This document shows positions 55,901 through 57,257 of a DNA stretch of 57,257 bases, piece by piece. The position numbers are program-made. Position 1 is the first letter of the stretch; the number at the start of each line of letters is the position of its first letter. This DNA comes from a virus (lineage: Duplodnaviria > Heunggongvirae > Uroviricota > Caudoviricetes), in the IMG/VR virus record IMGVR_UViG_637000263_000002, one strand, 5' to 3'.

Positions 55901-57257
55901 GTTCTGGCAGAGAGCGTAGCTCATTGCTAGAGATGTTAAGTTCTTGTATGTGCGGGGGCAGGTATGGGAGAGAGCGTAATCTGAGTAAACTTAAATTGAG
56001 GGCTGGCTCTTGAAAAGCCAGACATATTTTCAGTAATCGAACTGCCTGTGTTCGGTCTTCTGTTGCAGCACCTTCCTTGGCCCAGTTATCCCAGATGCGG
56101 TGATAATCCGTGATATTTTGCTCTTCTACGGATAAACGGGATATACATCCTAAACCACAAAAGGAGCGGAAAAAAGAAGGATTGTGGGCAGGTTTCATTT
56201 ATTATTGATCCTCATTGTTTATATATTAATATATTCGTGCAAATGGAGTGAGGATTCTTTAAAAAAACGCGCCTGTAAATAGTTAAGAACAGGAAGAACT
56301 GTTGGGGATGTGGCTGGCCGAAAATGAAGGGGTGAAGTTCTGGCTCAATGTGCTGACTGAACTGAAAAAACGCGGTTGGTCGCCCTACCTTTTCATCAAG
56401 CCAGTAGTCTGCCCACCACAGCATCATTTCTCTGCGCTTATCGAGATACTGAGCATGGTTGTAAATTCAGCTAACCCAGTGCGTTGACAAAAAATTAGCG
56501 CAAGAGGACAAAAAATCACCTTGCGCTAATGCTCTGTATCAGGTCACTAATACCATCTAAGTGGTTGATTCATAGTGACTGGATATGTTGTGTTTTGCAG
56601 TATTATGCAGTCTATTTTTTAAGCTAAATGTATTATAATGCATTGATATTAATGATTTTTACTGTTTCTCGGTCAGCTTTTTTATACTAACTTGAGCGAA
56701 ACGGGAAGGTAAAAAGACAAAAAGTTGTTTTTAATACCTTTAAGTGATACCAGATGGCATTGCGCCATCTGGCAGAGTGATTAACTAAACATCGCGGTAA
56801 TCGATGCGCTTGCCAGAGAGTGGAAATGAACGTTAAACCCGACCATCGCGCCGCTGGCTCCTTCATCGACATCAATACGCTCTACATCCAGCGCGTGAAC
56901 GGTAAAAATGTAGCGATGGGTTTCGCCTTTCGGCGGCGCTGCGCCATCGTATCCGGTTTTACCAAAATCGGTACGCGTCTGCAAAACGCCGTCTGGCATT
57001 GCTACCAGACCAGAGCCAAACCCTTGCGGTAATACGCGGGTATCAGCGGGTAAATTAACAACTACCCAGTGCCACCAGCCGGAGCCGGTTGGCGCATCCG
57101 GGTCGTAGCAGGTGACAACAAAACTTTTCGTTCCCGCAGGAACATCATCCCACGCCAGATGCGGTGAAATATTATCGCCATCGTAACCCATGCCGTTAAA
57201 GACATGACGATGCGGCAACTTATCGCCATCGCGCAGATCGTTACTGATGAGTTTCAT

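Follow-up and report, generated by a model that had tools for sequence, protein, structure and literature searches.

A lambda-type attR beside ybhB and the rearranged, ipaH-bearing prophage DNA next to it in Shigella flexneri 2a 2457T

Lysogeny by phage lambda depends on the tyrosine recombinase Int and the host protein IHF, which recombine attP with attB within a 7-bp overlap to generate attL and attR. Excision requires Int, Xis, IHF, Fis and both sites. The sib/tI hairpin remains on the attR side in a lysogen. This study concerns a junction of the attR type, next to ybhB, near the right end of a 57,257-bp stretch of DNA catalogued as viral (IMG/VR record IMGVR_UViG_637000263_000002; the whole stretch is called the window). 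Positions 12199-34058 of the window are identical at 21,860/21,860 positions to 701835-723694 of AE014073.1, which we take to be the genome of Shigella flexneri 2a 2457T. The last gene before the junction is a chromosomal copy of ipaH.

Chromosomal "ipaH islands" of S. flexneri contain ipaH amid prophage genes and insertion sequences (IS), and inversions in this species have been ascribed to IS, including IS600 (PMC4226921, PMC1550401, PMC8072062). A comparative study described the mechanism by which ipaH was integrated into the chromosome as "uncertain" (PMC8072062). Remnants of the Mu-like phage SfMu are reported to be common and widespread in S. flexneri (PMC4406740).

We consider it highly probable that the window holds the attR of a lambda/434-family phage that integrated at ybhC/ybhB, that the prophage has since been scrambled by IS to leave a locked fossil containing ipaH, and that the host genes at the left end were brought there by Mu and IS steps. 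In this proposal a temperate phage of the lambda/434 family would have integrated at the canonical attB between ybhC and ybhB of S. flexneri 2a 2457T, using Int and host IHF. The junction would be the right end of the phage late region, with ipaH as the last cargo gene just inside attR. Transposition of a Mu-like phage into dpiA would have been the first step of the rearrangement. In the second step, IS600 and IS911 copies scattered in several resident prophages would have recombined, reshuffling and partly deleting the prophages. The net result would be an inversion relative to K-12 that is now common to many S. flexneri genomes. Both this succession of steps and the view that attR can no longer be used are inferred.

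The phage-host junction at ybhB

The 15-bp common core GCTTTTTTATACTAA, aligned with the lambda, 434 and K-12 cores, matches the window exactly at a single place, 56676-56690 on the + strand. At up to two mismatches, where the chance expectation is 0.02, no second core site was found elsewhere in the window. The flanks were aligned with lambda attP (NC_001416), phage 434 attP (OL657226) and the K-12 ybhC-ybhB intergenic region. The 152 bp to the left of the core are 87.0% identical to lambda attP and 89.5% identical to 434 attP, while their identity to the K-12 sequence left of attB is 48%, which is chance level. The 100 bp to the right of the core are 100/100 identical to K-12 right of attB (549/560 when extended through ybhB), and only ∼43% identical to the lambda and 434 P' arms. 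Bacterial DNA starts at base 56691 (CTTGAGCGAAACG...) and extends to 57257. It comprises an intergenic segment (56691-56780) and ybhB (56781-57257, - strand), recognized by its identity to K-12 and annotated as ybhB in both K-12 and enteroinvasive E. coli (EIEC).

A BLAST search of 50,697 phage records with the attR region returned 434-type and lambda-type attP regions with E-values from 1e-100 to 6e-124. The matching spot in OL657226 is annotated as "O core of attP". Homology to lambda and 434 extends left of 56525, to about 56405-56485, and includes the sib/tI hairpin. The preliminary description of this DNA had read 56525-56700 as a lambda P arm followed by the 15-bp core, bacterial sequence and ybhB, with 56691 as the first bacterial base. 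Alignment of that interval to lambda attP and E. coli attB bears this out. The coordinates are accurate, the P-arm similarity is upheld, the phage/host border falls inside 56676-56690 with ybhB beyond it, and the sequence to the right of 56690 is the right side of K-12 attB instead of phage DNA. Judged by its sequence, 56525-56690 is a lambda-type attR with the structure P-O-B'.

Binding sites for Int, IHF, Xis and Fis were mapped by identity to lambda, using sequence only. The site definitions (X1, X1.5, X2, Fis and the others) are those of lambda attP, and the overlap is placed within the core according to established lambda biochemistry. All of these sites are given on the + strand. The arm-type Int sites P1 (AGGTCACTAA, 56541-56550) and P2 (CATAGTGACT, 56571-56580) are each 10/10 identical to lambda. 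Between them lies the IHF site H1 (TAAGTGGTTGATT, 56558-56570), which retains the consensus YAANNNNTTGATW. The putative Xis sites follow as X1 (56583-56596, 14/14), X1.5 (56597-56604, 7/8) and X2 (56605-56618, 12/14), with a predicted Fis region (56615-56633, 15/19) overlapping X2. The second IHF site, H2 (TAATGCATTGATA, 56636-56648), matches the IHF consensus and differs from lambda at N positions only. Of the core-type Int sites, C (CAGCTTTTT, 56674-56682) is of the phage type and 9/9 identical to lambda, and B' (ACTAACTTG, 56686-56694) is of the bacterial type and identical to K-12 attB. The overlap in which crossover would occur, TTTATAC (56681-56687), is identical and lies inside the exact core. 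On the lambda record NC_001416, GenBank annotates the binding features "int 1" and "int 2", which correspond to 56535-56554 (18/20) and 56567-56586 (19/20) in the window. The sib/tI hairpin, the retroregulator and terminator of the int transcript, lies at 56495-56529 on the - strand and was aligned with lambda 27535-27591. Its RNA fold is predicted at -29.1 kcal/mol (z = -3.6). The P arm as predicted is complete, with P1, P2, H1, H2, X1-X2, C, B' and sib/tI, and every feature of a lambda-Int attR that was looked for (core and overlap, P arm, IHF and Xis/Fis sites, B' side) was found.

Junctions of this kind are frequent. A 271-bp query containing the P arm, core and B' side was covered at ≥80% in 1,941/5,426 (∼36%) complete E. 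coli genomes, so an occupied lambda attB at ybhB is routine. Among the listed E. coli genomes that lack the junction, the match begins exactly at the core. The attR junction had no matches in viral contigs, and a scan of viral contigs for P-arm variants returned two unrelated contigs only.

The missing left partner

No partner for this attR was found in the window. Lambda and EIEC Int, Xis, cI, Exo and Bet gave no tblastn match, BLAST detected no P' arm, and no attL (B-O-P') with int and xis bounds the same element. A complete arrangement is found in EIEC FDAARGOS_944 (NZ_CP065613.1), which has ybhC-attL-int-xis...J-lom-tail fibre-ipaHa-attR-ybhB-bioA and an int product 99.2% identical to lambda Int. 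In the EIEC attL core (locus 13200-13225, GCTTTTTATACTAA) the T run near the overlap is five bases long and not six, through either a genuine 1-bp deletion or a homopolymer error.

A homology search with the EIEC Int led to a truncated integrase in S. flexneri 8401, and look-ups of this truncated integrase and of the window DnaB provided three informative loci. The first is in 8401 itself. The second, in S. flexneri AUSMDU00008355 (LR213452.1; PMC9376355), reads ybhJ-ybhC-BOP'-int'-IS600-...-DnaC-DnaB-Q-lysis-IS-Nu1-A, which is the colinear, un-rearranged state. The third, in Shigella boydii 600080 (CP049606.1; PMC7545283), reads ybhC-BOP'-int'-IS600-DnaC...lysis-VTT-terS-terL::IS2-portal. In int' the first ∼43 codons are missing (EIEC locus 13298-14238 is retained of 13298-14368), and the int'/IS600 junction is identical in all three strains over the 60 nt compared. 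No xis or immunity genes are called between int' and the replication genes in the gene tables of 8401, AUSMDU00008355 and 600080. These three lineages diverged after the prophage had already lost its own excision machinery. The preliminary description had called for a search for the matching attL, int and xis elsewhere in the genome. An attL and a truncated int do occur in relatives, but the window has none of the three and no xis gene is called in those relatives. A further protein look-up (P0033) returned only draft contigs with the canonical int-attL-ybhC arrangement. A scan of viral contigs for the attL pattern found >120 B-O-P' sites, of which only two looked Shigella-like (IS911- and IS2-bearing), and neither could be tied to S. 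flexneri.

With the partners gone from the window, int truncated and no xis called in relatives, the attR would be a fossil that the element itself could not resolve, and the ipaH-bearing DNA would thereby be locked in the chromosome. A surviving attL, if there is one, is probably distant and inverted, in which case recombination supplied in trans would invert the intervening segment, not excise it.

The left end of the 8401 prophage is not at ybhC. In this genome (CP000266.1 2751161-2772120, locus 10960-11200) the IS600-truncated int'-P' end joins the ygcO/ygcP intergenic site. The junction reads ...AACTTAGTATAAA joined to TAATAAGGATAATTTATG-ygcP, with a partial core (TTTATAC versus TTTATCC in the overlap). 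The empty site in K-12, GGATAAATAATAAGG, is at ∼2.894 Mb on the K-12 map, ∼2.1 Mb from ybhC. Among 5,426 E. coli genomes, a single one, from a chicken, carries an entire lambda-Int prophage at this site. In this genome, Z1323CEC0013 (NZ_CP148427.1 3393.4-3443.1 kb), the prophage is complete, measures ∼50 kb and lies between ygcP and ygcO, with a lambda-type int interrupted by IS100, xis, a myovirus-type baseplate, a 434-like P arm on the ygcO side and the attR core CAACTTATTTATCC. The presence of a whole prophage indicates that ygcO/ygcP is a genuine, rare site for lambda-Int phages. It could be a rare alternative site or one with a variant core.

The 8401 junction could have arisen from a second prophage and prophage-prophage recombination, or by exchange at the att core. 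Neither the int'-P'-ygcP junction nor its predicted reciprocal had matches in viral contigs. Taking the 8401 int'-P' end at ygcO/ygcP as an example, we regard it as rather unlikely that lambda-type att sites themselves served as breakpoints of chromosomal rearrangement in S. flexneri. If they did, attL would have been exchanged with a second lambda-Int site, through Int acting in trans or through recombination of two lambda-Int prophages, and a very large segment of the chromosome would then have the attR at ybhB at one end and the former partner of this attR at the other.

The IS-bounded mosaic from dpiA to attR

The preliminary description had anchored a prophage at the ybhC-ybhB site. The attR stands, but a single prophage in the window does not, because the 54 kb from dpiA to attR are a mosaic. 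The pieces are a Mu-like remnant, a reversed head module, orphan fragments and a lambdoid early, lysis and late region, separated by three IS600, three IS911 and one IS2. The IS600 copies, delimited by self-comparison, are at 5779-7042 (+), 20751-21987 (-) and 31131-32394 (+). The IS911 copies are at 15562-16810 (+), 17794-19039 (-) and 24025-25273 (+). IS2 (12787-14117, 1331 bp) interrupts the gene for the large terminase within the reversed head module, and an intact 5-bp duplication, ATTGC, on both sides marks it as a simple insertion. It is the sole IS in the window that resembles one.

Flank analysis found no 3-bp target duplication at any of the three IS600 copies and no target duplication at the third IS911, which is the signature of recombination between IS copies. 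No partner duplications or reciprocal flanks for the three IS600 copies were found inside the window. The first and second IS911 share one duplication, split as CTT / AAG, around a 983-bp inverted segment that contains a VTT-domain gene (16811-17793). Most other strains lack the first IS911 and have this segment in the opposite orientation, so an IS911 inversion sets 2457T apart from most sampled S. flexneri genomes. The true breakpoints of the rearrangement are the IS600 and IS911 copies without target duplications.

Contiguous with attR is a lambda/phage-21-like late region (32395-54256, +) in which Pfam identified Nu1, A, W, portal, protease, capsid and tail genes, J (48061-51540), lom (51608-52207), a tail fibre and DUF4376. 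The late region is ∼91% identical to phage 21 and PhiR-series phages and, from 40156 onward, 98.2-98.4% identical to the attB prophage of EIEC FDAARGOS_944. An early-right/lysis module (25274-31130, +; Pfam) comprises DnaC-like, DnaB and NinH proteins, Q (28066-28482), tRNAs, holin, lysozyme and Rz. The tRNAs form a cluster of four downstream of Q (28682-28992), namely Met(cat), Arg(tct), Thr(tgt) and Gly(tcc). A second copy of the cluster (19672-19981) is in an orphan DUF1133/holin' fragment (19040-20750) between the second IS911 and the second IS600. A 176-bp Rz-distal stretch is also duplicated at 100% identity (16811-16986 and 30954-31129), one copy being bounded by the first IS911 and the other by the third IS600. 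This duplication is evidence that two related lambdoid prophages with a common lysis module were once present.

A fragment with a truncated helix-turn-helix gene and a primase (21988-24024, +) retains 619 of the 968 aa of a Toprim protein and is interrupted by the third IS911. The primase fragment is 99.3% identical to that of the EIEC attB prophage, and the full-length gene is present in S. flexneri 8401. In CP026810.1 the prophage primase is called as two open reading frames (ORFs), the second with a LAGLIDADG/Hint signal (locus 81-2764), and the full-length 968-aa primase of 8401 also has a weak LAGLIDADG match. The primase may contain an intein or a homing-endonuclease insertion. The reversed lambdoid head module (7043-15561, -) contains terS, terL::IS2, portal, Mu-F-like, protease/scaffold and major capsid genes. 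A Mu origin was considered for this module and rejected, as PHROGs matches and the context in S. boydii 600080 place it in a lambdoid prophage. In S. boydii 600080 the lysis module is contiguous with the head module that is reversed in the window, so both were once in one prophage at ybhC.

Several observations weigh against the history proposed above. The P arm is just 87-90% identical to those of characterized phages, and some of the changes are in X2 and the Fis region. The attL and int' of 2457T itself were not located by look-ups that reach up to 10 kb beyond genes encoded in the window, so that both "locked" and "partner far away" derive from other strains. In 8401 the int'-P' end abuts ygcP, and the history of the left end is therefore not uniform within S. 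flexneri. The order and number of IS-mediated events are not reconstructible, as the IS600 copies have no partner duplications in the window. Finally, the absence of a duplication at the third IS600 means that the late region with attR may derive from a different prophage than the DnaC-to-lysis module.

This last point leads to a serious alternative, which we rate at slightly below an even chance. The attR-bearing DNA would be a chimera derived from two or more resident prophages of the lambda-Int family. Recombination at IS600 would have fused the late region 32395-56690 (Nu1 to ipaH to attR) with the DnaC-to-lysis module of a second prophage, and the late genes that once belonged to this second prophage would be the reversed head module at 7043-15561. 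The junction in question is the third IS600 (31131-32394), which has no target duplication. In S. boydii 600080 and CP026810.1 the DnaC-to-lysis module runs into VTT-terS-terL::IS2-portal, an order in which, by window coordinates, 25274-31129 is followed by 16811-17793 and next by 15561-9942 in reverse. Two parental prophages would also account for the duplication of both the 176-bp stretch and the four-tRNA cluster in the window, for the two replication modules side by side (primase versus DnaC/DnaB), and for the S. flexneri genomes that have a second, near-identical tail-ipaH block beside dinI/aspS. Against a chimera, the AUSMDU00008355 locus is a single colinear block in which lysis-IS-Nu1-A comes downstream of ybhC-attL-int', lambdoid phages naturally have the terminase genes after lysis, and the EIEC attB prophage shares the primase fragment at 99.3% and the part from tail to attR at 98.3%. 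The attR assignment itself would be unaffected by a chimeric origin.

The left end of the window consists of host genes (1-2917), namely pagP (1-561, -), dcuC (1150-2535, +) and the 3' half of dpiA (2576-2917, -). They are 99.3% identical to E. coli up to 2917 and no further, a position within dpiA. The K-12 map has dpiA at 653.9 kb and pagP at 656.6 kb (span 653.9-657.1 kb), with the attB core lying at 807,328. The preliminary description was thus right that these genes are far from lambda attB in K-12, the distance being ∼150 kb. Relative to K-12 the pagP/dcuC/dpiA segment is reversed while the attB core and ybhB are forward, and this inversion indicates that a rearrangement did occur. In other strains the left flank continues as cspE...lipA...dacA, which is the K-12 order backwards.

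The phage DNA that touches dpiA is a Mu-like (SfMu-type) remnant (2918-5778, +) with an exact left end, a c repressor gene (3255-3764, -), ner (3918-4172) and a truncated MuA. Mu nt 1 corresponds to window 2918, Mu nt 1-447 to 2918-3363 (91.7%) and Mu nt 1511-2964 to 4327-5780 (97.8%). The MuA ORF is called at 544 aa, has Pfam Mu transposase domains and ends where the first IS600 begins. What is left of the Mu-like element is the left end, c, ner and most of A. The remaining genes are absent from the window, and no Mu right end was found in it at up to three mismatches. Because 2918 is Mu nt 1, the phage DNA adjoining the left 2.9 kb arrived by transposition. The dpiA/phage junction at 2917/2918 is a transposition junction, unrelated to the lambda-type site. 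The suggestion that rearrangement moved the left 2.9 kb next to prophage DNA therefore holds as far as the inversion relative to ybhB is concerned, but the direct contact with phage DNA reflects Mu transposition and is not implied by the attR.

A simpler account would be a single reciprocal inversion of ∼150 kb from dpiA to ybhC, with one IS600 of the Mu prophage and one of the attB prophage as its endpoints. It would explain the reversed host genes on the left and the forward ybhB, the backwards K-12 order of the left flank, and the position of the first IS600 directly after the truncated MuA. However, that IS600 is followed by the reversed head module instead of the part of the prophage nearest attR, it is separated from attR by at least four further IS junctions without duplications, the window has no reciprocal pair of IS600 flanks, and strains differ further at the same locus. 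We think it improbable that one such inversion explains the whole window. The pagP-dpiA/ybhB linkage is the product of a multi-step, IS-mediated process with a net inversion.

Phage DNA fills nearly all of 2918-56690, as it would in an intact, inducible lambdoid prophage with its attL at the dpiA junction. This explanation has next to no chance of being correct and was refuted by the core search, the tblastn and P' searches and the Mu end at 2918, where a Mu end takes the place of an att site. The window contains no second core or P' arm and no homologues of int, xis, cI (repressor), exo or bet. It has seven IS copies, IS2 disrupts terL, and the primase and MuA are truncated.

The layout is common to other genomes. 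Window 1-15561 is 99.95-99.98% identical to six other, independent S. flexneri assemblies, and 38061-57257 matches the prophage beside ybhB in two further S. flexneri genomes at 99.87% identity. The dpiA/Mu junction is shared by many S. flexneri genomes, and an exact match to it occurs in S. flexneri SFBU1023 and in one "E. coli" genome (4.44 Mb). The junction of IS600 (-) with the truncated primase fragment, with the reversed head module to the left, was found in most places returned by the primase and DnaB look-ups. The pagP-dpiA arrangement is shared by many complete S. flexneri genomes and is not peculiar to one assembly. Although near-identical repeats (three IS600, three IS911, duplicated prophage segments) could mislead an assembler, there is almost no prospect that the pagP-dpiA/ybhB linkage is an assembly artefact, because the same junctions recur at consistent distances in many independently assembled complete S. 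flexneri genomes (in CP178302.1, for example, MuA' is at ∼687.8 kb and the primase at ∼704.7 kb).

The ipaH cargo and comparison with known systems

The last cargo gene before attR is ipaH (54436-56198, -), which encodes a type III secretion system NEL E3 ubiquitin ligase and was identified by the Pfam domains LRR_TTSS and NEL. The EIEC counterpart is annotated ipaHa and encodes 587 aa. The window copy is identical at 1850/1851 positions to the 587-aa gene of S. flexneri FDAARGOS_690, with one missing G near 54760. This 1-bp deletion splits the gene into ORFs of 505 and 105 aa, and is either a real pseudogene mutation of 2457T or an old sequencing error. An exact protein look-up of the 505-aa product returned no record, because the frameshift is specific to one assembly.

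The interval from ipaH to the P arm contains a MxiE-box-like motif, GGCGCGTTTTTTTAAAG, at about 56255-56273 (-), ∼60-75 bp upstream of the ipaH start. Its 13-nt core, CGTTTTTTTAAAG, was matched at 56257-56269, taking GTATCGTTTTTTTANAG as the MxiE-box consensus. S. flexneri genomes also have a second tail-J-lom-tail fibre-ipaH block, 99.7-99.8% identical, located beside dinI/aspS and not ybhB. That block encodes a 583-aa IpaH and is preceded by an IS110-family element in place of head genes.

The junction is already known in kind, being a textbook lambda attR in a reference genome that was sequenced long ago. Its import for basic biology is small, and its practical worth is as an anchor. What it adds is a delivery route for the chromosomal ipaH of the window, lambda-Int integration at attB, a question left open by PMC8072062. 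The attR and the IS map together illustrate how Shigella may fix phage-borne virulence genes, with int and xis destroyed or removed and the remainder scrambled by IS600 and IS911. For annotators the locus is a warning that 54 kb of "prophage" can be a mosaic of several elements and not one.

Compared with the attR of a lambda lysogen of K-12 (attP at NC_001416 27724-27738), the window junction shares the identical 15-bp core and B' side, the location next to ybhB, and the site order sib/tI, P1, H1, P2, X1, X1.5, X2/F, H2, C, O, B'. It differs in that the P arm is 87% identical, ipaH adjoins it in place of the lambda b region, and no cognate int, xis or attL is present at prophage distance. The attP of coliphage 434 (OL657226, M60848) is among the closest characterized P arms (89.5% over 152 bp), with homology through tI. 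Phage 434 also has fragments of type III effector genes (NleC/NleH-like) just before attP, which is the cargo position occupied by ipaH. Its cargo genes are different, and it has an intact attP with int and xis beside it.

The remnant at the left end shares the exact Mu-type left end, c, ner and MuA domains with SfMu and phage Mu, but only 2.86 kb is left, MuA is cut by IS600 and there is no right end. The closest whole element is the ipaHa prophage of EIEC FDAARGOS_944, which shares tail-J-lom-tail fibre-DUF4376-ipaH-attR-ybhB-bioA at 98-99% identity. The EIEC copy differs in being colinear from ybhC-attL-int-xis to attR, in having other head genes and in encoding an intact ipaH of 587 aa. 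As in the S. flexneri ipaH islands, the ipaH of the window lies amid prophage genes and IS, and for this copy the attR shows lambda-Int site-specific integration at attB. This chromosomal ipaH was delivered as cargo beside the attP of a lambda-Int phage.

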